Shown: positions 1 to 21,091 of the stretch, piece by piece
Numbering within the stretch: the first letter of the stretch is position 1
Layout of the letters: each line of letters starts with the position of its first letter
Virus record (IMG/VR): IMGVR_UViG_2778261153_000009
Span: 1-41,300 of that record
DNA: 41,300 nucleotides
From: a virus
Taxonomy: Duplodnaviria; Heunggongvirae; Uroviricota; Caudoviricetes
Strand: one strand, 5' to 3'
The notes under the pieces: generated by a model
Seen by the model: only the letters and a program-made list of their open reading frames with translations
The model's database searches: none
Told to the model about the DNA's origin: nothing
Made by a program: the position numbers and the translations under genes

Positions 1-1719
1 ATGATTTTTAGGGATAGCTTGAGAGTATTACCTTATGGTCGAGTAGATAATGATTTCTTCCAGATAGAAGAAAGACGTTCATGGAATGCAGGGCGATATT
101 ATTGGTCTAATAGAAGGATTTTTGGTTATATTGGAATTACTCAATCCAGTAATAAAGAGCTGAAAGATAAGTCGGGGAGAGAGGGATTCATAAGAAACCA
201 GGCTGCAAGAGAACTGAAAACTATTATATCTAATTTGTTAACTGAACTTGCTGATAGATTTTTTGGTTCACGTTCTGATGACCGTAAAGAGCTTTTAGAA
301 CAAGTTAAGCGTGAAAAAGAGTTAAGAAAATCTGCTCAACAACAAGCTCGAAAATCAACACAAAAAAGTTTTTCAGAAGCTTTGAAGAATCAGACACCAG
401 TTCTTGATGCTTCCTTGGAGGCTGTTAAAAGGCTGAAAACTAAGCTTGATAAAACTGATGGTTCGTTAGATTTAAACTATCTTAAAATTATAGACAGTGA
501 TCTTACAAACTTAGATGCGTTGCGCAGTGAAATTAAAACGCCTATCAAACCTCCAAAACTTGGAATGTATGAAGAGAAATATAGAGACTACAGAGATAAA
601 TTTAATGAGTTCTCTGCGTATATTCTACAAATGAAGTTAGCAATTAATAAACTTGATTCTGAATTAAATAAACTTGAGCCTTCATTGTCAGCGAAAAATC
701 ACCTTGAAAAAAATCAAGGTATTATTAATTCTAAACTAACTAAGTTTAATAACACGATAGAGGAGAAGATACATTCTCTTTTAAAAAAATGGGCCGATGA
801 AATAAAGGTTGATCGAAGTGATTATTATGCTAAAACTATATCAGTTGTTGATTCAATAGATAATGATTCACAAATTGAAAATGTGTTTAATTTGCTCGAT
901 AGTTTATATGTTGAGTCAGTTGATACCCTAACTTTCAAATATCAATCAATAATAAAAGGTCTCGATAGATTATTTGAAGGTATAAACTTAGATTCAGCAT
1001 TCTCATTATCTGAAGAAGAACGCTCATATTTTGAAGAAAAAGCTAAAAGTTTAAACGCGCTTGCACAGTTAGGTATTAGTGTTGAGATAATATCTCATGA
1101 ACTTGAAGAAATGGATTCTATGGTAACCAGAGGACTAAACTCTCTTCCTACTTCTGTAAAAGAACACCCTGGTTTTTCATTGGCGTTAAATGCTCACAGA
1201 TCGCTTACTCAACAAATACGTTTCTTATCACCTTTGAAAATATCAGGTTATCAATCCAGGCAGAGAATAACTGGAAAAAATATCATGGATTATGTCCTGA
1301 AGTTCTTTGGGGAGCGTTTCGAACGGCAACGAATAACTATTGAATTTAGTGAAGAGTTTAAGCAAATCGCAATAACAGATATACCATCAAGGATCTATCC
1401 TGTTTTTACTAATATTATCAACAATGCAATGTATTGGGTCAGTCTGTCAAATAATAGGCTCATAAAGATTGGTTTTGTGAATTCTTTGGTTATCATAGCA
1501 AATTCTGGTCCGGCAATTGATACCGATGATATCCCGCGACTATTTGAACTATTTTATAGCAAAAGAGCAAATGGACATGGGGTAGGTCTGTATCTATGTC
1601 GAGAAAACCTTGCTGTTGCACATCATAAAATATGGTATTCAGAACCTGATGAAGGCGATAACTATTTAATAAAAGATGGCGCTAATTTTGTGATCCAGTT
1701 CAATGGAGTGGAGTTCTAA
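1..1719 (+). CDS. Histidine-kinase-like protein (HisKA + HATPase_c) with long charged N-terminal region that looks coiled-coil; possibly 5'-truncated by window edge
   Basis: H-box EIISHELEEMDSMV (His codon 1096..1098), N-box FTNIINNAMYWV, G1 ANSGPAID, F FELFYS, G2 GHGVGLYL; H-to-N spacing ~105 aa. Confidence 0.7.
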   Translation: MIFRDSLRVLPYGRVDNDFFQIEERRSWNAGRYYWSNRRIFGYIGITQSSNKELKDKSGREGFIRNQAARELKTIISNLLTELADRFFGSRSDDRKELLEQVKREKELRKSAQQQARKSTQKSFSEALKNQTPVLDASLEAVKRLKTKLDKTDGSLDLNYLKIIDSDLTNLDALRSEIKTPIKPPKLGMYEEKYRDYRDKFNEFSAYILQMKLAINKLDSELNKLEPSLSAKNHLEKNQGIINSKLTKFNNTIEEKIHSLLKKWADEIKVDRSDYYAKTISVVDSIDNDSQIENVFNLLDSLYVESVDTLTFKYQSIIKGLDRLFEGINLDSAFSLSEEERSYFEEKAKSLNALAQLGISVEIISHELEEMDSMVTRGLNSLPTSVKEHPGFSLALNAHRSLTQQIRFLSPLKISGYQSRQRITGKNIMDYVLKFFGERFERQRITIEFSEEFKQIAITDIPSRIYPVFTNIINNAMYWVSLSNNRLIKIGFVNSLVIIANSGPAIDTDDIPRLFELFYSKRANGHGVGLYLCRENLAVAHHKIWYSEPDEGDNYLIKDGANFVIQFNGVEF

Positions 1720-1720
1720 T

Positions 1721-3469
1721 ATGACAGTGGCAAATTATAATTCTCTTGTCCAGAAAACTTTCTGCGAAAATGCAATTCGTTCCGTTGTCATGATTGATGA
1801 CGATTTTCTGACGTATTCTGAATCAATCAGGGCGTTGAATAACGAAGTTGATTTAGACTACAACAAAATTGACTCATCTAAACGAGCCGCTACTCTTGAG
1901 AGCTTTTTTCAATCTAAAAATATGATTTGTGATGTTGACAATGGTTCTGTTAATTTCGATGTGGATCGGATTAGAAAATCAGATCTTATTATTGTAGATT
2001 ATCATCTTGATAATAATGCACCTGATAAAACACTTAAACCATTACAAGATTTGAAAGACTCCGATCATTTAAATATGATTGTAATATATACTAGAGAGAA
2101 TTTAGAAACGGTTTGGATGCAGATATCATCGACTCTCAAAGGTGCTCTGGATATCAACAGCTTGATCATTGACTACGATAATGAAGATGTCCAAAGTTAT
2201 TGGGAAGACGTTGTATTACCGAACTTAAATGATAATGGTAATAAAGCTCTCACAAGAGATGAAACAATAGCCTATATTAAAGACAGTAAGCCTTGTAGAA
2301 GAATTAAAAGATTAATACATGATGATGCTGTGTTGGAGGATCAAAAGGATAAAAACTTCATTGCAAAAATGATTGCAGAATATGCTGTGTCTAGAAATGC
2401 AATTATTTCTAGCAACACATCTGGCAATGTCATTCGGGGTGATGAAAGCGGAGTAAAATGGATTCAATGTGGTAATATCTTTGTCTCCCTATTTCATAAG
2501 GTTCAAGATGATCATGAAAACGATGGAGATAGGATTTGGCAAACTCTCAATGATTCTCTCATTGAATGGAAACCATCTTATTATCAGTTAATAAAATCTG
2601 AAATTCAGAATGCAATCGAAGCTGAGGCTTTATCTTTTGTAAATCATTTGGCTAACGATCATTACGGTCAAGCTGCGTGGTTAAATGAGATATTAAAATC
2701 AGACTCGCCTGATATTAGATGTAGAAATATTGACTTTGTATTTGGTAATTTATCAGAAGAGCTTTATCAAAGACTTAAAAATAATAATACGCTGGATGAA
2801 TTTATCAAAAGTGTTTTTGATAGCTATTCAAATGAATACGCTAACAGCGGAGTTGCTGCATTGCTCCAATATTGCTCTTCAAAAATGGATCTGCCATCAA
2901 ATAATGATACTTATCACGAAATGTATCATGCTTTAAATATGAATTTGTCTTCAAAGAATTTTGAAGATGGTCATATTTCTACTGGCACTATTTTCTTTGA
3001 TACAGAGTCGAACAAATGGTATTTATGTGTATCTGCGGCATGTGATTTGGTTCCTACTCAGGGTAACGACCCTCACCATGTAAGATTAAGTCCGCACAGG
3101 CTCATTAAAGTTCTGGAGCTTTTTAACGCCAGTCAGAGTAAAGCATTGCCATTTGCTGAACATTCGAAATATATATATGTAATGCATAAAAATCAAAGAA
3201 AATATCTCTCTATTTTCGAAGGGGATAAAACGCTTCCTGTTGTTGATTATATGGTGGTGTTGAATCATGGAACAACAGTTGATGGCGAAGAAAAAAATAT
3301 TATTTCTGCCGTGTTTTTAAGTAATATGGATGGCAACGTGCAAAATGTTCCTGTCCGACTCAAACTTAAATCTCAACTGAGAACTGGTTATGCAGAAAGA
3401 TATCAGGCTATAGCGTCTCAGTATAGCTCAAGGATTGGTGTGGATTATGTATCAATGATGCTACCATAA
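1721..3469 (+). CDS. Receiver-like N-terminal domain fused to ~430-aa domain of unknown function
   Basis: ATG 1 nt after upstream stop with SD GGAGTGGAG; receiver-like pattern VVMIDDD / LIIVDYHL (Asp codon 1997..1999) / MIVIYT / K~140; C-terminal domain not recognised. Confidence 0.55.
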   Translation: MTVANYNSLVQKTFCENAIRSVVMIDDDFLTYSESIRALNNEVDLDYNKIDSSKRAATLESFFQSKNMICDVDNGSVNFDVDRIRKSDLIIVDYHLDNNAPDKTLKPLQDLKDSDHLNMIVIYTRENLETVWMQISSTLKGALDINSLIIDYDNEDVQSYWEDVVLPNLNDNGNKALTRDETIAYIKDSKPCRRIKRLIHDDAVLEDQKDKNFIAKMIAEYAVSRNAIISSNTSGNVIRGDESGVKWIQCGNIFVSLFHKVQDDHENDGDRIWQTLNDSLIEWKPSYYQLIKSEIQNAIEAEALSFVNHLANDHYGQAAWLNEILKSDSPDIRCRNIDFVFGNLSEELYQRLKNNNTLDEFIKSVFDSYSNEYANSGVAALLQYCSSKMDLPSNNDTYHEMYHALNMNLSSKNFEDGHISTGTIFFDTESNKWYLCVSAACDLVPTQGNDPHHVRLSPHRLIKVLELFNASQSKALPFAEHSKYIYVMHKNQRKYLSIFEGDKTLPVVDYMVVLNHGTTVDGEEKNIISAVFLSNMDGNVQNVPVRLKLKSQLRTGYAERYQAIASQYSSRIGVDYVSMMLP

Positions 3470-3540
3470 TTATTATATTTTAGGCGTGGTGATTTTTTTT
3501 CGCCATGCCTATTTTATATTTATCATCACAATGATGTTGT

Positions 3541-3957
3541 TTATTTTTGTTTAAGTCTTCTAAGCTTCATGCATTCTAATGAGAATAATAATAGAGTTGT
3601 GCTGTATATAAAGCCAGAGTTAGTTAATAACTTTAAATTTAATGCTTCAGGATTTTCACTGAGAAAGTGAAAGGCATAAACTAAGTATACAGCTAAAGTA
3701 GCCGTTCCAATTGTTGGTCCAATATCGCCTTGATCATGAGGTTCAAGGTTTACATTGAACTTGAAGATTAGCCATTCAAATCCCCAAGTAAAAAAAACAA
3801 CTAATATCATGGCTGCGAATAATTTCGCGATGTTATCTGCTGATGGATTCATCAGAACAGATTGTTTCTGAAAAAATTCACAAAGTGAGAGTCCGAAAAA
3901 AATAAAAAAAAGTGGTCTGGAACTAAATTTTTCAAAAACTTTGAATAGGGTTTCCAT
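3541..3957 (-). CDS. Small hydrophobic membrane protein, hypothetical
   Basis: 138-aa ORF with several hydrophobic stretches, AT-rich, convergent with the upstream operon. Confidence 0.4.
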   Translation of the reverse strand: METLFKVFEKFSSRPLFFIFFGLSLCEFFQKQSVLMNPSADNIAKLFAAMILVVFFTWGFEWLIFKFNVNLEPHDQGDIGPTIGTATLAVYLVYAFHFLSENPEALNLKLLTNSGFIYSTTLLLFSLECMKLRRLKQK

Positions 3958-3995
3958 TTTCTTTACCTTCAGGATTATATTAGCTATTCTGATAC

Positions 3996-5225
3996 TTAGG
4001 CTACCAGAGCATTTGATCTTTGAGCTTGAACGTAATCACTCCACCATTGCATCAAACTCTGTCGCTCTATCAGATATTCTGCACGATTGTATGCTGCGAT
4101 AATTTCATCTTTTTTCGAGTGGGCAAGCGCTGCCTCAAGAACTTCAGCTCTGAATTTACCAGACTCCTCTGCCGCTGTTCGTGCAATAGAACGCATACCG
4201 TGAGCTACAAGCTCGCCTCCGAACCCCATTCGGATGATAGCTGCGTTGGCTGTTTGTTCATGCATATGATTAAGAGGCGCTTTTATGCTGGGGAAAACCC
4301 ATTCTCTATGCCCACTTATTGATTTCATTAATTCAAGGATGCGCAAAGCTTCTTTACTCAAAGGAACTTTGTGAAGCTTTTTCATTTTCATGAAATCAGC
4401 AGGAATGTTCCAAATGCTGTTGGTTGTATCAATATCAGACCACCTTGCGCGAACGGCTTCACCCGGACGAACCCATGTCAACAATTGCCATTCAATTAGC
4501 ATACGTGTTTCCAACCGGATTGACGCATTCGTCAAAGATTCCATAAACCTTGGCAATTCGCTTGGGGGAAGGGCAGGCATATTTTGCTTTTTTGGTTTAC
4601 TGAATCTTTGACCAAGGTTGTCAGCCGGGTTGAACTCAATAAGTTCTTCAGTAGCTGCCCACCGGAAGATTTCATTCAGACGTGAAATGATACGGCGTAG
4701 AGTTTCCAATACGCCTCGTTGCTCAATAGGATCAAGGTGTTGTTTTAAGAGCTTAGGTCGGATCTCATTGATAGGGACATTACCCAGACCGGGAAAGACA
4801 TTTCTCTCTAAGCTGCGCCAGATGTCTGCTGCATGGTCTTGTGAGATACCTGATGTCTTTACCTTCTCATCTAACCATTTCCGCGCTACGGCTTGGAGAG
4901 TGTGCTCAGTAGCACTCTTTAATGCCTTCGCCTTATCGTTGTTATGGATTTGGGGATCAACACCATTTGCCAGAAAGGAGAGATATTCATCACGTAAGGC
5001 TCTGGCTCTTGCAAGGGTAAGGTGAGGATATGTCCCAAGGCTCATTTTGGTTCTTTTCTTGCTCACTGGTACTGCATACCTGAAATACCAATTTTTCTTG
5101 CCTCCTTTCGCCAAAGGAGCGATTCGTAGAATCAGACCATCACCGTCAAACAAGTTGATTTCTTTATCGGCTGGCTTGGTGCTTTTGATTTCAGTGTCAG
5201 TGAGCTTCTTAGCGATTTTTGCCAT
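3996..5225 (-). CDS. int: Tyrosine integrase, P4 family (IntA-like)
   Basis: N-terminus MAKIAKKLTDTEIK...LFDGDGLILRI, C-terminal SLMQWWSDY typical of P4-type integrases; start moved to Met15 of the ORF by analogy with IntA. Confidence 0.85.
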   Translation of the reverse strand: MAKIAKKLTDTEIKSTKPADKEINLFDGDGLILRIAPLAKGGKKNWYFRYAVPVSKKRTKMSLGTYPHLTLARARALRDEYLSFLANGVDPQIHNNDKAKALKSATEHTLQAVARKWLDEKVKTSGISQDHAADIWRSLERNVFPGLGNVPINEIRPKLLKQHLDPIEQRGVLETLRRIISRLNEIFRWAATEELIEFNPADNLGQRFSKPKKQNMPALPPSELPRFMESLTNASIRLETRMLIEWQLLTWVRPGEAVRARWSDIDTTNSIWNIPADFMKMKKLHKVPLSKEALRILELMKSISGHREWVFPSIKAPLNHMHEQTANAAIIRMGFGGELVAHGMRSIARTAAEESGKFRAEVLEAALAHSKKDEIIAAYNRAEYLIERQSLMQWWSDYVQAQRSNALVA

Positions 5226-5390
5226 TTTGGGACCCTCGGTTTTTGGACCCTTCTTAGTGGGTCCCATTCAGGGTGCCATAACTCGTAGTTCTCAGCAATT
5301 CTCACTGGACGACAATAGACGTAAAAAAGCCCGCAGAGCTTGTGCTGTGTGGGCTTAGTAGACTTCATTGAACTTCAAACAACTAAAAAG

Positions 5391-5422
5391 TGGTGGAGCT
5401 GGCGGGAGTTGAACCCGTGTCC
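5391..5422 (-). repeat. att direct repeat: partial copy of tmRNA (ssrA) 3' end
   Basis: Minus strand reads GGACACGGGTTCAACTCCCGCCAGCTCCACCA, matching the ssrA acceptor/T-arm 3' end as I recall it; upstream lacks any tmRNA tag-coding region. Confidence 0.7.
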
Positions 5423-5849
5423 ATAGTTATGTAATTCATTGAATTTAAATAGCCAAATATTGTTGATTTTACAAGCGGCTCTTTTGCGGAACTTTTTCTG
5501 TCCTGTTACTGTCTTACTATTTATTTTAAAATAGTTTCATTTGGAATTAATGGTTTGTGGTTGCAGTTTCGGAGATAGATAGCATTTTTTGCTAAAAAAT
5601 ATTTTTATAAAAAAATGTGTGTAAAAATGATGTTATGCACAGATTTATGCACAGAGGCTTTGTGATAAACCAGATTGTTTTGGATAAGTTTGTTTTTTTG
5701 TGATTTGTCAACAATATTATTGACTCTTGTTACTAAAGTGAGTGTTTTCTAAGGTGGTCAGAAGTTGTCCCTTCATGTAATCTTATTAGCCATAAAGAAC
5801 AAAAAATAATTCAACATCATTACCAACTATTTGTAAGATAAGGTTTTTA

Positions 5850-6665
5850 ATGTTGCAGCCAGCAAAAAAAGCATCAGTTATTAGCGCGCGGCTAACTAAA
5901 TACCTCAAAGATGGAGTGAGGATTGATGACTTTAGCTTTAGAAGGATGTTACGTGAGATTGAAGCACTTAGAGATCCTGTCTCTGAGGACTATCTTTTAG
6001 CGTTGGTCTATGGTGCACATGGCCAAGTGAATGAGGCGATAGGCTTCTTTGAGCGTTCCTTGCAGGTATGCCATAATGAGGTTGTTGCAAAGAATTTTCT
6101 TGTTTTCTTGTCAGATTACGGTACGTTGAAGAAAAGCTTTGAAACAAGCATTAAGCTTGCTGAAAGCTTCATATCCCCGTTTATTTATCTTCAAGCTTAT
6201 GAAAACTCCCTCTTTATGGGGAAGATGGCGTTGGCGGAGAAGTATTTCCAGTCATACTCTAAATTGTTCGGAGATAAGGAGCCTGAAAAAATGGACAACA
6301 ATTTTGATGAAGTTGTTTCCCAGGTCGAATCCTTTAAGCAACGTGCCGATCTTTCTGGTTTAGAATATGAACTTATTTTCAATAATGTAGCCAATGTCAT
6401 GGATTCTCAGAAGGTTCATCTTTCGGGAATGCGTTTTTATAATATTTCGGAAGAGAAAGTGAATGCGATTGTATTCATGACAAAGTCTTCTGATGCTGAA
6501 CAAATCGCTGATATGAATATTGAGCTTGCTTTTTCAATGGCTGAGCACGATTGTTTAGTCGGTAAAGATTTTGCTGTTTGGTTTGAATGTAAAGACACAC
6601 ATATTGAGCAGAATGCTATCTCCGAATTAGGTCTGATTACCCGGAGGGTTGCACATGCCGGTTAA
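5850..6665 (+). CDS. Hypothetical protein (AT-rich cargo between att and int)
   Basis: 271-aa ORF, no family recognised; overlaps the next gene. Confidence 0.5.
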   Translation: MLQPAKKASVISARLTKYLKDGVRIDDFSFRRMLREIEALRDPVSEDYLLALVYGAHGQVNEAIGFFERSLQVCHNEVVAKNFLVFLSDYGTLKKSFETSIKLAESFISPFIYLQAYENSLFMGKMALAEKYFQSYSKLFGDKEPEKMDNNFDEVVSQVESFKQRADLSGLEYELIFNNVANVMDSQKVHLSGMRFYNISEEKVNAIVFMTKSSDAEQIADMNIELAFSMAEHDCLVGKDFAVWFECKDTHIEQNAISELGLITRRVAHAG

Positions 6666-7038
6666 TAGTCAAGATTTTCTCGGTTTTGCAAAAGACTGTC
6701 ATCAACGTAATGACGAAATCGGCTATCGAAATGCTATAGCAAGATCCTACTATGGCGCTTACCATCATGTCTTGCCTTGTATGGTAAACGGGCCGAAAGA
6801 CAGTCATCAGGGGCTAATCAATTATTTGCAGGGCGATGCTTCAAGAGGAAGTGAAGTATATGAAGCTAGATATCTAAAAGGGATTAGTTTTATCCTGAGT
6901 CAACTTAAAGCTCAGAGGATTGTTGCAGACTATCGACTTGATCAATCGGTCACTTCTAAACAGTCTGAAGTTGCGATTCTAACAACTGAGAGGCTCTTTG
7001 CTAAGTGTACGGAAATGCTTAAATCGAGAGCCTCCTAA
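6655..7038 (+). CDS. Hypothetical protein, coupled to upstream gene
   Basis: ATG at 6655 preceded by SD GGAGGG; 11-nt overlap with upstream stop; contains RSYYGAYH (R-x6-H) motif. Confidence 0.5.
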   Translation: MPVNSQDFLGFAKDCHQRNDEIGYRNAIARSYYGAYHHVLPCMVNGPKDSHQGLINYLQGDASRGSEVYEARYLKGISFILSQLKAQRIVADYRLDQSVTSKQSEVAILTTERLFAKCTEMLKSRAS

Positions 7039-7043
7039 TTGAT

Positions 7044-7067
7044 AAAGCCACTTAAGTGGCTTTTTTT
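7044..7067 (+). terminator. Rho-independent terminator (hairpin AAAGCCAC-TTAA-GTGGCTTT + T-run)
   Basis: Perfect stem followed by TTTTTTT between convergent genes; overlaps int stop codon. Confidence 0.5.
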
Positions 7068-8224
7068 GTGATATTGCTGGTCGTATTACCGTCATATTCC
7101 TTTAAATATGAACCATAATGACGAAATAACATTTCCGGCCCTTTATGCCCCATTTGAGCTGCAAGCCAAAACAGGTTTGCTCCCCGGCTGATATGGCGGG
7201 TGGCGAATGTATGCCTAGTTTGATATGGATTTCTGTAACGAATACCTGCTTTTCGCAATGTTGGCACCCATGCTTTTTTCCTGATTGCATCAGCACTTGC
7301 CCAAGGCTTATTGGTCTTTGGATCTTCAAAGACAGTAGTATCCTTCATGAATGTAAATGGCTTCTGATTTATCAGCGCCAACATTGCCTCTTCTGTCAGT
7401 TCAACTTTCCGAGTACCTGCTTTTGTCTTTGTCCCTTTGATAACACCGACAACACTTGCGCTCTGGACATGGGCAGTTTTTCCAACAAAGTCGATATCAC
7501 GCCATCGAAGGGCACATAATTCAGAACTACGCAGGCCTGTATGTATAGCGAACCGGAACAGATTTTCCCATTGTTTGTTTCCGGCTGCTGCTAGTAATGC
7601 ATCAACTTCTGCTGGTGATAGCGGATCAACTACGTAGCTGCTTTCTGCTTCTGACTTATCACTTTGGTAGCGCGAAGCTGTTACTAACGATACGGGGTTA
7701 ATTTGAAGTACCCCATCGGTCACGGCTTCATCAAGTGCTGACCGCAGGAAAGATAACTGGTTGCGAATTGTTTTTAAGGTCGTTTTCTGATTTTGAATCC
7801 ACGCTTTCAGGGTTGCTGGTGTTAATTCACTTGCAGGGCAAATGTGAAGTGAGGCTAACGCACTACGGCATTTTTTATAGCCACCAATCGTAGAGGGTGA
7901 AAGTTTTCTTGTTTCGCAGATTTCAAGATATTCGTCCAGGTACATCTTTACCGTTTTGCCTGCAGCAGCATTACCAAAAATTTTCAAACGAGCAGAACGG
8001 GGAAAATATTCTGCATAAATGAATGTTCCCCTTTCGATCTTATTATGGATTTCGCCGAGTGTACGCTCGGCGTATTTAATGTTCTTTGGTGTTACTTCCA
8101 GATTGGAAAGCGGCTCACGACATCTAACTCCTTTGTAGGTGAAAGTTATATTGATCGTTTCTCCCTGGCGGTGTTTCCTGATTGTTACGCCGCGCGGTAG
8201 TTTGAGCAGTTTTGTCTGGCCCAT
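7052..8224 (-). CDS. int: Phage tyrosine integrase (lambdoid)
   Basis: C-terminal RHTFATRHISRGANLFWLAAQMGHKGPEMLFRHYGSY catalytic region; N-terminal arm-binding-like domain. Confidence 0.85.
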   Translation of the reverse strand: MGQTKLLKLPRGVTIRKHRQGETINITFTYKGVRCREPLSNLEVTPKNIKYAERTLGEIHNKIERGTFIYAEYFPRSARLKIFGNAAAGKTVKMYLDEYLEICETRKLSPSTIGGYKKCRSALASLHICPASELTPATLKAWIQNQKTTLKTIRNQLSFLRSALDEAVTDGVLQINPVSLVTASRYQSDKSEAESSYVVDPLSPAEVDALLAAAGNKQWENLFRFAIHTGLRSSELCALRWRDIDFVGKTAHVQSASVVGVIKGTKTKAGTRKVELTEEAMLALINQKPFTFMKDTTVFEDPKTNKPWASADAIRKKAWVPTLRKAGIRYRNPYQTRHTFATRHISRGANLFWLAAQMGHKGPEMLFRHYGSYLKEYDGNTTSNITKKAT

Positions 8225-8391
8225 TTTGCAACCTCACTAAGATCAATCCACCTCTCCTTAACGCCTTCAACCTTTAAAACCTGAACACCTTCACGCCAAA
8301 CACCGCGCTGTACACGTTTGTTTATTGCTTCAGGAGTTTCGCCAGTTTCTTTGCAATAAGTTGAGATAGGAACACAATCGAGGTTCAGCAT
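8185..8391 (-). CDS. xis: Excisionase-like small DNA-binding protein
   Basis: 68-aa basic ORF immediately upstream of and overlapping int; SD GGAG 6 nt before ATG at 8391. Confidence 0.5.
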   Translation of the reverse strand: MLNLDCVPISTYCKETGETPEAINKRVQRGVWREGVQVLKVEGVKERWIDLSEVAKWARQNCSNYRAA

Positions 8392-8432
8392 ACGTTTCTC
8401 CATTATCCCGTCTGCACACGGGAGCAACATTA

Positions 8433-9299
8433 TTAACGAATAGTGTCGTTACTTTGAAGTACAGCAAATGCCATTAATACTTCTAAAGTATATCTTCTAT
8501 AAAATTTAACAAAACCAACATAGAAAACATAGACGAAGAAAAAGCTAAGCATTATTGAAAGTAAACTATAAAGATAATCACTATGAGTACATAATCGATA
8601 AATAAAGGTTGGAACTGATACCCAAAATGAAATTATAAAGATTAAACATATGTTTCTGCAAAAACCATATAATGCAACATAGTTTTGAATTTTTGTTTGA
8701 TGTTGTTTTGAAAACTCATAAACATAATGATATGCCAATCTGAAGAGATCATCATCAAGTCCGTTTTTATCTTGTAATAATTGGCGATTTGTTATGAACT
8801 TTTTCTCATAACCTTCTTTGATCATTAACCATGTTGTATTAGCTAAATGAAATGGTAGAGATTGAGAATAACATAGTTTTTGTGTTATAAAATCCCATAG
8901 TATTATTGGGCATAATACGCATTTGATTATGCGATTCTTTATTTTTGTTTTTTTATCAGCGCTTCTCTCATCGCATGATGGGCTACAAATGCTTTCTGAG
9001 GTATCTATCAATTTTTTAAATAGATATTTGGAAGGATATCCTAATTCTTTATTCATGTATTTTTCGATAAAAAATGCTGACGTGATAGAAATAAAATGTC
9101 CAGCTATATAAGATATAATAACTATTGAAGCGTAGTTCAAAATGCCAAAGATTTGACTTTGACCTCTGAGCAATTCACTTAAGTCAATAACAATATCTAG
9201 ATCGAATGTCAAACCACAGAAATACATTAATAGGATAAAAAAACCACCTGGTATTAAATATCCAAGAAAGTCATAGAATGAGAATGGATTTTGATTCAT
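8433..9299 (-). CDS. Multi-pass membrane protein, hypothetical (AT-rich cargo)
   Basis: ATG at 9299 with SD GGAGA; multiple hydrophobic segments; AT-rich unlike flanking phage genes. Confidence 0.55.
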   Translation of the reverse strand: MNQNPFSFYDFLGYLIPGGFFILLMYFCGLTFDLDIVIDLSELLRGQSQIFGILNYASIVIISYIAGHFISITSAFFIEKYMNKELGYPSKYLFKKLIDTSESICSPSCDERSADKKTKIKNRIIKCVLCPIILWDFITQKLCYSQSLPFHLANTTWLMIKEGYEKKFITNRQLLQDKNGLDDDLFRLAYHYVYEFSKQHQTKIQNYVALYGFCRNICLIFIISFWVSVPTFIYRLCTHSDYLYSLLSIMLSFFFVYVFYVGFVKFYRRYTLEVLMAFAVLQSNDTIR

Positions 9300-9407
9300 T
9301 GTTGCTCTCCAATAATTTTTCAATTTGTAATATAACCTATATCTATATGTTAATAAATTACTTATATGTTCTTTTATGGCAGAGTTTGAATTCGTACGTG
9401 CTGATTT

Positions 9408-19679: not shown

Positions 19680-20564
19680 TTATATTGGGCGCTTTGAATT
19701 CGATTTAAAGCGTCTTCCACTTATCCCTGAAATCCAAATGTCTTCCTCAAGAAAGTCAAGAAGGGCTTTTATTTCTTTTTTTGATGAAGGCATGACAATT
19801 TTCTCAACACCGCCAACTATTATGGTTTGTAAGGGGAAATTGACTTTAGCAGCTTCGGATTTAAACTTTGACATATTTTGGGGTGTTAGCATCCCAGTCT
19901 GATTTATTAGTGTTACTTTATTTCTTATCACTGTATCTGCAACGGATTTTAGATCAAAACCTTGGGGAGTAGAAAATACACTAAGTTGACTAAATGCATT
20001 AAGTTCTTGGTCAGTAGCAGCAGAAAAATAGGACGACATGTCAAAAATGCTTCTTAGATTAAAGAAACTCTTAAATCGTATTGTATCATTGATAATTATT
20101 GCAACTAGTTTATCATCAACATTAAAACCGATGCTATTAGCTTTACTAAAGGTAGTTTTGCTTGCAAAAAGCTTTCCAAAGAATGATTTTGAGGTATCTA
20201 AGATTTGTTTTTTGTTGAAGGTTTGTAGCGCAATAATATTGGGGTTTGCTGGCGCGTCAACACCAACAAATAATGCTTTAATATAACCAATATCAATTTG
20301 GCTGGGATCCCAGACAGGCACGGCGGTAGGCCTATTGACTGCGTCAATCAGGCGTGCAGAATCAGTAAAGTTTTGTATTTCAAAACACTCACTATGTTTT
20401 GGTGTATAACCGGCATAGAATGGTATCATATTGTTATGATGACTTTCAAAATATTGACGCTGTTGTTGGAAAATGGCCGTAACAGAAGTACTTGCTGTTG
20501 CATCAAGTTCGACTCTAACAATTCTCGTTGCAATTGTATTATCTATTACTGCAAAAAGTGCCAT
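19680..20564 (-). CDS. Hypothetical soluble protein (AT-rich cargo, partner of membrane protein)
   Basis: 294 aa, 5 nt downstream of the membrane gene on the same strand; no family recognised. Confidence 0.55.
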   Translation of the reverse strand: MALFAVIDNTIATRIVRVELDATASTSVTAIFQQQRQYFESHHNNMIPFYAGYTPKHSECFEIQNFTDSARLIDAVNRPTAVPVWDPSQIDIGYIKALFVGVDAPANPNIIALQTFNKKQILDTSKSFFGKLFASKTTFSKANSIGFNVDDKLVAIIINDTIRFKSFFNLRSIFDMSSYFSAATDQELNAFSQLSVFSTPQGFDLKSVADTVIRNKVTLINQTGMLTPQNMSKFKSEAAKVNFPLQTIIVGGVEKIVMPSSKKEIKALLDFLEEDIWISGISGRRFKSNSKRPI

Positions 20565-20569
20565 GGTTA

Positions 20570-21091
20570 TTATCCTTTAACATGTAGAAATGTGTAGTCT
20601 GTTAATTGAATAACTGTAAATTTGATATCTTTAATATCAGTAATGACTGATTTAGAAATCAATACAAAACCTACGCCGGTGTCATCTTCAGCTTCGTAAA
20701 ATTTATAACCGATAAGTGACAATACTGGGTTAAAGTTATAGTTCTCGGAAAAGCTGATGTAAAATAACAATGACAAATAAAAGAATAACGCATATGCTTT
20801 ATTTTCAGCAATAGAGTCTGTTCCTAGGAGAGGGAATAAATAGCTTAAGAAATAATTAGTTACTTCTTTGTTAGCGGGAGAAACTGAACTAATATTTTTT
20901 GTCAGAGGTTCAAGTTGTTTCTCAGCATATTGAATCAGGCCTATTGCTAATAACCAACTTGCTATGCCAACGCATAAGCTATATTGCATCAGCCAAACCG
21001 TATCTTTTACATATCCAATAAAAAATAGAGTTGCGCAAACAGGTGCAATTGAGCTTGCTGTTAATAATAAGCGTGCTAATTTGTTCATCAT
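20570..21091 (-). CDS. Membrane protein, ~4 TM helices (AT-rich cargo)
   Basis: 173 aa with four hydrophobic segments; SD AAAGGA. Confidence 0.55.
   Translation of the reverse strand: MMNKLARLLLTASSIAPVCATLFFIGYVKDTVWLMQYSLCVGIASWLLAIGLIQYAEKQLEPLTKNISSVSPANKEVTNYFLSYLFPLLGTDSIAENKAYALFFYLSLLFYISFSENYNFNPVLSLIGYKFYEAEDDTGVGFVLISKSVITDIKDIKFTVIQLTDYTFLHVKG

Follow-up and report, generated by a model that had tools for sequence, protein, structure and literature searches.

The window analysed here is a stretch of 41,300 nucleotides (nt) of viral DNA (Caudoviricetes; IMG/VR record IMGVR_UViG_2778261153_000009, positions 1 to 41,300), and we examined a pair of adjacent genes in it, referred to as A and B, that lies between an attachment (att) site and the integrase gene (int) of a prophage (Table 1). 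An earlier note on this DNA, made from its letters alone, had drawn attention to the pair, and the gene coordinates and the overlap of 11 nt that it gave were correct. A Shine-Dalgarno-like GGAGGG is located inside A, 8 nt 5' of the ATG of B. For B, the program-made list of open reading frames (ORFs) begins at a TTG at position 6649 and RefSeq at 6655; the homologues all start with MPV or MSV. Since both genes are conserved down to 13–28% identity in 64 distinct pairs, and since the structural models reach predicted local distance difference test (pLDDT) values of 91 and 93, A and B are, by sequence and model evidence, real genes.

The approximately 430 bp of very AT-rich non-coding DNA that had been noted upstream of A proved to be a leader of 427 bp. 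Over positions 5426-5849 its GC content is 28.5%, compared to 39.8% in A, 41.4% in B, and 48.4% in the whole window, and this part contains no plus-strand ORF of at least 40 amino acids. No Rfam match and no tRNA was obtained in the whole window, and the putative 5' leader RNA had no stable structure (z = 0.09). A consensus scan upstream of A yielded no strong plus-strand sigma-70 site. A candidate promoter consists of a weak -35 element, GTGGTC (5754-5759), and a TG followed by TAATCT (5776-5783), and falls within a block, TTCATGTAATCTTA (5772-5785), that is kept in diverged cassettes. This block is common to the cassettes whose A proteins are 56–60% identical; a related block, CTGTAAyCTTA, occurs in a cassette group at 33–35% identity, and elements of the type TGACA-N17-TGGTACAAT are found in more distant groups. 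From the conservation of these upstream blocks we tentatively propose that the cassette has its own promoter. At the downstream end, the stop codon of int (7052-7054, minus strand) sits in the loop of the terminator hairpin, in keeping with the strong terminator overlapping the int stop that had been reported before.

The leader further contains a direct repeat, TTATGCACAGA, present twice in tandem with a spacing of 12 nt (5633-5655), and a perfect inverted repeat of 11 nt (5456-5466 and 5708-5718) with its arms 241 nt apart. These repeats may be binding sites, for example integrase arm sites, IHF sites, or an operator.

Table 1. Position of the A-B cassette and of the features that delimit it in the window.
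Feature	Position	Strand	Basis or remark
att core, duplicated 3' end of ssrA (tmRNA gene)	5391..5422	-	Prophage boundary; exact-match comparison with ssrA of strain SFE8
Exchangeable cargo module	5424..7088		Not homologous to the corresponding DNA of prophages whose integrase is 97% identical
AT-rich non-coding leader, 427 bp	5423..5849	+	Composition; starts directly after the copy of the ssrA 3' end
Gene A, 271 aa	5850..6665	+	ATG 5850, TAA 6663-6665
Gene B, 127 aa	6655..7038	+	ATG 6655, TAA 7036-7038
Intrinsic terminator	7044..7070	+	Hairpin 7044-7063 (8-bp stem, 4 GC pairs), then T-run; ends the A-B transcript
Prophage tyrosine integrase	7052..8224	-	Arm-DNA-bind_2 and Phage_integrase domains; convergent with A-B

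Searched as single sequences, the window copies of A and B returned nothing above threshold in Pfam, NCBIfam, or the PDB. Sensitive searches with family profiles resulted in the assignment of a HEPN fold to B. Of the 50 homologues retrieved for B, some carry the name UPF0332 or HEPN in their source, and one has a precomputed PF05168 match. PF05168 was matched at E ≤ 1 by 25 of 31 aligned homologues (best E 2e-5), and the family profile retrieved two PDB chains annotated as 'HEPN domain-containing protein', 9xbd_A (E 2.2e-5) and 9xbc_A (1.2e-4), as well as AF0298 (2hsb_A, 0.021). Polyubiquitin chains, the top PDB matches of the profile, were rejected as an artefact in which weak 'R..sDY' matches are summed over repeats with zero significant stretches. 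The helices of B form a four-helix up-and-down bundle, as is the topology of HEPN domains, and because the family matches both PF05168 and the PDB HEPN chains 9xbd_A, 9xbc_A, and 2hsb, the HEPN fold of B is established.

The Rx4-6H signature of HEPN domains is located at the end of helix 3 or the start of the loop between helices 3 and 4 (PMC3710099). In the AF0298-like HEPN-T clade, the Arg of this motif is retained, whereas its His has usually given way to another residue, in many cases Asp; the insert that separates helices 2 and 3 provides a second, strongly conserved His, which together with the Arg may make up an alternative active site (PMC3710099). In B, helix 3 (residues 71-93) ends with R88-I-V-A-D92-Y93, placing an Asp where the motif His is expected, and the segment of residues 43-60, inserted between helices 2 and 3, carries H51. 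R88 and H51 are present in 64 of 64 distinct family members. Judged by these sequence features, B fits the description of a HEPN domain of the AF0298/UPF0332 (HEPN-T, PF05168) clade. The earlier note had suggested HEPN on account of an R-x6-H motif; the fold was borne out by the profile matches of the family, but the motif was not the HEPN signature. R30-x6-H37 lies in helix 2 (residues 21-42) rather than where helix 3 ends, and corresponds to the clade motif 'R-aYYa-f-H/Y', which reads RAYYAMFY in 9xbd. Across the 64 members, which reach down to 28% identity, there is no variation at E21, R25, N26, R30, Y32, Y33, H37, H51, R88, or Y93, and 63 of them have D92. Such a density of invariant polar residues in a protein of 127 residues points to a catalytic or ligand-binding centre.

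Protein A is of a different kind. Its helices from residue 7 to 138 make up about four tandem tetratricopeptide (TPR)-like repeats that form a solenoid and match TPR profiles; in the curated libraries, sub-threshold TPR matches alone were obtained (residues 48-76). An NCBIfam match to VapB15 (E 0.043, 14 bits versus a cut-off of 80) was discarded as noise. A belongs to phrog_17809, a family of unknown function, and the PHROG family of B is likewise of unknown function. A profile search of 1.84 billion representatives yielded 137 matches to A, of which about 90 were full-length proteins of about 245–290 amino acids; the remaining ones were mostly large TPR proteins aligned through positions 42-84 alone. 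The repeats are followed by a C-terminal alpha/beta domain (approximately residues 152-247) with the element order alpha-alpha-beta-beta-alpha-beta, for which no relatives in the PDB or Pfam were found when it was searched as a separate profile. Short proteins that matched this C-terminus as if it were a stand-alone domain were not accepted as such; the one checked, P0089, was half of a split A gene. The best-conserved stretch of A, a helix (216-231) and a strand (241-247), lies in the C-terminal domain, and only F67, N82, F162, and N223 are conserved to at least 90%. A carries no catalytic signature. No nucleotidyltransferase match was obtained in Pfam, NCBIfam, PADLOC, or the PDB, and A has neither a conserved G-S nor a conserved DxD motif. 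By our secondary-structure reading, the element order of the C-terminal domain is also unlike what we take to be the nucleotidyltransferase core. By its sequence, A is not an MNT nucleotidyltransferase. Because of the TPR fold and the near absence of invariant polar residues, A looks like a binding protein rather than an enzyme, with a predicted role as sensor or neutraliser.

To locate further copies of the pair, the alignment of B was used, since that of A has no sufficiently conserved stretch and was useless for the purpose. The B-profile search of genomes and IMG/VR resulted in 88 loci (12 genomic and 76 viral); the set analysed comprised 96 loci, including those fetched before this search. 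In all 96, a homologue of A is located directly upstream of B on the same strand. The stop of A and the start of B overlap by 1–29 nt in 55 of 65 distinct pairs, while nine pairs have a gap of at most 16 nt and one pair abuts. In 63 of 63 comparisons A was more diverged than B, with a mean identity to the window copy of 31.5% versus 49.1%, and this greater divergence agrees with a role as sensor or antitoxin. The divergences of A and B are correlated (r = 0.93), as expected for a unit that is inherited together. The hosts of the phages bearing the pair are Enterobacterales, Aeromonas, Gilliamella, Vibrio, and Burkholderia, and the pair also occurs in deposited phage genomes of Klebsiella, Vibrio, and Burkholderia, where its annotation is always hypothetical. 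The sole unpaired copy seen is a B-like HEPN gene without A in Yersinia phage YP3 (L104, 3007-3366; hmmsearch E 1e-18), whose neighbours on the two sides encode a virion protein and a baseplate wedge.

Degraded copies of the cassette were also observed. A is fragmented and B truncated in locus L024, and B is truncated in L063, a homologue of A being located upstream in both; in a decayed copy in L101 (2568-3336), A is split into ORFs of 143 and 111 amino acids. In a prophage region of Serratia fonticola (L007-L009 and L014, 1-1589), an ApeA-like HEPN gene, recognised by weak precomputed Pfam matches, is located about 3.7 kb upstream of A-B, so that two HEPN genes are clustered there.

The DNA of the window is part of an E. 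coli chromosome, with positions 5300-7100 being 100% identical to strain SFE8 and others, and two mobile elements are inserted in tandem at ssrA. The left one is an island that terminates in a P4-type integrase gene (3996-5267, minus strand). The right one is a prophage of about 42 kb whose regulatory region is lambdoid and whose tail genes are those of a contractile tail. In the att repeat described earlier, 27 nt (5391-5417) are identical to the ssrA 3' end; over 32 nt the match has a single mismatch, and the repeat also matches the ssrA feature of phage CP-1639. In strain SFE8 the intact ssrA follows about 6 kb to the right of the window, where it adjoins the far end of the prophage. As int and the excisionase gene (xis; 8185-8430, minus strand, phrog_2917) both face the att copy and the far end abuts the intact ssrA, the pair lies between att and int of the prophage, as had been proposed.

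Comparison with related prophages indicates the extent of the mobile unit. Homology to the prophages of strains ATCC 11775 and GPEC1035 (loci L011 and L012) breaks off at 7089-7092, so that the 37 nt at the 3' end of int are not shared, and restarts only at the att core (5398-5423), which defines the module listed in Table 1. The module contains the AT-rich leader, A, B, the terminator, and the last approximately 12 codons of int; these terminal codons and the shared terminator are swapped together with the cargo. The integrase occurs at 95–99% identity in about 950 complete E. coli genomes, and the pair in 44 of 5426. In strain ATCC 11775 the same slot is occupied by three other genes, one of them STAS-like, and in GPEC1035 by a single ORF of 259 amino acids. 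In 31 of the 96 loci the cassette is convergent with an integrase gene at most 62 nt downstream, involving several unrelated integrases and chromosomal sites. Elsewhere it separates the gene for the Q antiterminator or a late activator from the holin/endolysin genes, separates terS from terL, lies beside methyltransferase/NinB genes, or falls within a tail cluster, with the major tail genes on one side and the tape-measure genes on the other. The mean GC content over 61 loci was 0.36 in the 300 nt upstream, 0.40 in the cassette, and 0.47 in the flanks. A complete Kiwa system (19680-21091, minus strand; KwaA, 20570-21091, E 1.9e-83; KwaB, 19680-20564, E 2.3e-150) is present in this prophage too, in the slot from the Q antiterminator to the holin, where A-B sits in other phages. 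Variable presence, a terminator, lower GC content, and varied sites are all features of phage accessory cargo, to which a promoter is tentatively added. Based on these results we concluded that a temperate phage that has integrated at ssrA carries positions 5424-7088 as an accessory cassette, or 'moron'.

Taken together, the explanation that we favour, with slightly more confidence than doubt, is that A and B form a two-protein conflict module in which an RNase effector, B, is restrained or switched by A and aborts phage infection. We base this reading on the 11-nt overlap with the Shine-Dalgarno-like element inside A, the terminator, the strict linkage, the conservation of B, the TPR fold and low conservation of A with its correlated divergence, the cargo behaviour, and the variety of insertion sites. 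A toxin-antitoxin or defence role, named as a possibility in the earlier note, would be in line with the whole of the context evidence. A function in defence is supported by the Kiwa system in the same prophage and by the precedents of prophage HEPN nucleases, namely the anticodon nuclease HepS, which the tail-tip protein J opens (PMC13043305), and AbiV, a HEPN abortive-infection nuclease that cleaves rRNA (bioRxiv 10.1101/2024.05.05.592566). From established HEPN biology and these precedents we infer that B is an RNase, that A restrains it, and that a phage cue releases it. B would act as a dimer, with a metal-independent active site formed at the dimer by R88 and the alternative His, H51, and translation would be stopped when it is active. 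A would be translated first and, being coupled to B, would never be scarcer than B; with this gene order and translational coupling, B would not be produced without A. The conserved C-terminal domain of A would bind B and keep it inactive, and the faster-evolving TPR array would bind a protein or peptide cue of the infecting phage, upon which B would be released. Alternatively, A might be lost upon shut-off of host expression, which would likewise release B. Released B would arrest translation, so that the lysogen would abort the infection and the clonal hosts of the prophage would be protected. In its most specific form, in which the TPR protein A recognises a protein or peptide of the invading phage and frees a non-canonical HEPN nuclease via its orphan C-terminal domain, the pair would be an undescribed abortive-infection system; this we put forward tentatively, as possible rather than probable.

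Several points weigh against a conflict module with a nuclease effector. B lacks the canonical Rx4-6H signature, Asp being at the position of the His in 63 of the 64 family members. That AF0298-like HEPN-T proteins act as RNases was predicted in 2013 and is not a demonstrated fact, and certain HEPN domains bind nucleotides or RNA without being catalytic. In PADLOC-DB v2.0.0, A had no match and B a marginal one to HEPN_IX (E 0.0013, residues 74-113); a methyltransferase match of B in PADLOC was spurious. No helix-turn-helix, ribbon-helix-helix, or AbrB domain was detected in A, nor any similarity to known HEPN antitoxins. Neutralisation of B by A is deduced solely from gene order, coupling, and co-inheritance, and the lone B-like gene of YP3 is an argument against B by itself being dangerously toxic in every case.

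The alternative that survives best, although we consider it unlikely, is a classical addiction-type toxin-antitoxin system, in which A neutralises a toxic B and the main effect is to stabilise the prophage, by post-segregational killing upon its excision or loss, with no specific sensing of phage. The arrangement of the genes, with the antitoxin first, an overlap, and coupling, is that of a generic type II-like operon, HEPN toxins are established in the type VII HepT/MntA systems (PMC13000451; structures 5yep and 7ae2), and next to int and att the loss of the element would matter. However, A is large, TPR-based, and without DNA-binding, labile-antitoxin, or MNT features, and a location inside late operons (tail, terminase) fits cargo of phage-phage conflict better than prophage maintenance.

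Somewhat less likely still, B might be a non-catalytic HEPN binder of nucleotides or RNA and the pair a phage regulator or a counter-defence device that, for example, sequesters a host immune signal or RNA. Eleven invariant or near-invariant polar residues, including R88 and H51, look more like a catalytic centre, even though the canonical His is replaced by Asp and HEPN domains devoid of the motif have been proposed as non-catalytic binders (PMC3710099). The YP3 gene without A and the frequent co-orientation of the cassette with late genes would fit such a role; the cassette's own promoter-like elements and terminator and its location at lysogenic-conversion sites speak against it, and a near-obligatory TPR partner is typical of regulated effectors.

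We consider it improbable that the pair is a lysogenic-conversion factor for host physiology or virulence, such as a TPR chaperone-like protein with a helical-bundle partner, a view in line with the virulence morons that lambdoid phages carry at att-int and Q-lysis sites (textbook background) and with secretion chaperones such as AcrH (3wxx) being TPR proteins. Core phage genes, be they structural, replicative, or accessory to integration (e.g. a recombination directionality factor), are effectively excluded: the pair is always found in phages or prophages and at times within tail or packaging clusters, but it is missing from about 95% of the prophages with the same integrase, unrelated genes occupy the same slot, its position varies between phages, xis is already present, and both PHROG families are of unknown function. 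Neither of the outcomes that the earlier note had named as counting against its reading, structural or replication proteins and a fold other than HEPN, was observed.

Further genes of potential interest are located in the neighbourhood. In addition to its integrase, the island (1-5267) encodes an ATPase that resembles histidine kinases and contains a HEF_HK domain (1-1719), a Response_reg_2 protein (1703-3469), and a 138-amino acid ORF (3541-3957, minus strand). PADLOC yielded zero matches in this region, which could be another conflict system. Beside the excisionase gene, a patch with a GC content of 29% encodes a protein of 296 amino acids (8433-9323, minus strand; phrog_12528, unknown function) that has hydrophobic stretches and a membrane-spanning look, and that displays weak similarity to Csx27, an accessory protein of type VI-B CRISPR systems (PADLOC E 1.4e-5); this is probably a further accessory gene. 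At its far end, beside the intact ssrA (1271781-1275484 in the SFE8 record; 16782-20485 in L010), the prophage harbours genes for a DUF262 protein and a hypothetical protein of 306 amino acids and a decayed DinI-like gene, and this end is a probable further cargo site.

HEPN nucleases are among the commonest effectors of prokaryotic immunity, and HEPN-based candidates are numerous. For the AF0298/UPF0332 branch, crystal structures have been available for twenty years, and no demonstrated function was found in this analysis. The pair represents a compact, phage-borne, mobile cassette with a TPR partner, a simple two-gene system of E. coli that can be cloned and tested. If the pair is indeed an abortive-infection system with A as a TPR sensor, this would be the first demonstrated biological role for the clade and a new way of gating a HEPN protein, by a separate repeat-protein sensor and not by AMPylation or self-oligomerisation; if the pair is merely an addiction cassette, the result would be an ordinary one. 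The slot from the att core to the last approximately 12 codons of int is exchangeable in a common family of E. coli prophages that integrate at ssrA and is a convenient place in which to look for further accessory systems.

Among known systems, B shares its clade, including the lack of the canonical Rx4-6H, with the AF0298-like HEPN-T proteins (UPF0332/PF05168; 2hsb, 1ufb, 1wol, and the newer 9xbd and 9xbc). These are mostly from archaea or thermophiles and stand alone or with an MNT protein, whereas B has a TPR protein as its partner and is carried by temperate phages of Proteobacteria. The pair is, by sequence, not a HepT/MntA system, because it includes no nucleotidyltransferase and no RX4HXY motif. 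In the type VII HepT/MntA system the partner is a nucleotidyltransferase that oligoAMPylates a Tyr, a mode of neutralisation that is unavailable to A, and in B the HepT motif is represented by R-x3-D-Y. A HEPN pair of the validated DefensePredictor set, DS-28, had no evident resemblance on inspection, with a canonical R-N-S-V-A-H motif, the reversed gene order, and proteins of 163 and 252 amino acids; in the files of the DefensePredictor supplement that were examined, the accessions of the pair were absent.

AbiV of Lactococcus has been linked to the AF0298-like clade via the alternative conserved His (PMC3710099), and AF0298 and TT1696 are among the structures nearest to it. As an rRNase that acts against phage, AbiV is metal-independent. 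AbiV differs in its length of 201 amino acids, a later-assigned motif (91-RNHKSKH-97), and the lack of a TPR partner, and the AbiV family was not among the Pfam or PADLOC matches of the pair. The combination of a HEPN domain with TPR repeats has been known since 2013; the present combination was not found described in the sources that were searched. The same design of HEPN plus alpha-solenoid is found in LA2681, which is both fused to and in an operon with TPR, and in AbiU2, which is in an operon with a Sel1-repeat protein (PMC3710099, Table 1). Both belong to other HEPN families with the canonical Rx4-6H, and neither A nor B was seen to be related to them in sequence. Finally, HepS of the Salmonella prophage Gifsy-1 (PMC13043305) and Tha of S. 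aureus prophages (PMC11087260) are single proteins that have the canonical RX4-6H motif and are auto-inhibited by oligomerisation, whereas in the A-B module sensing and inhibition would both be supplied by a separate TPR protein.

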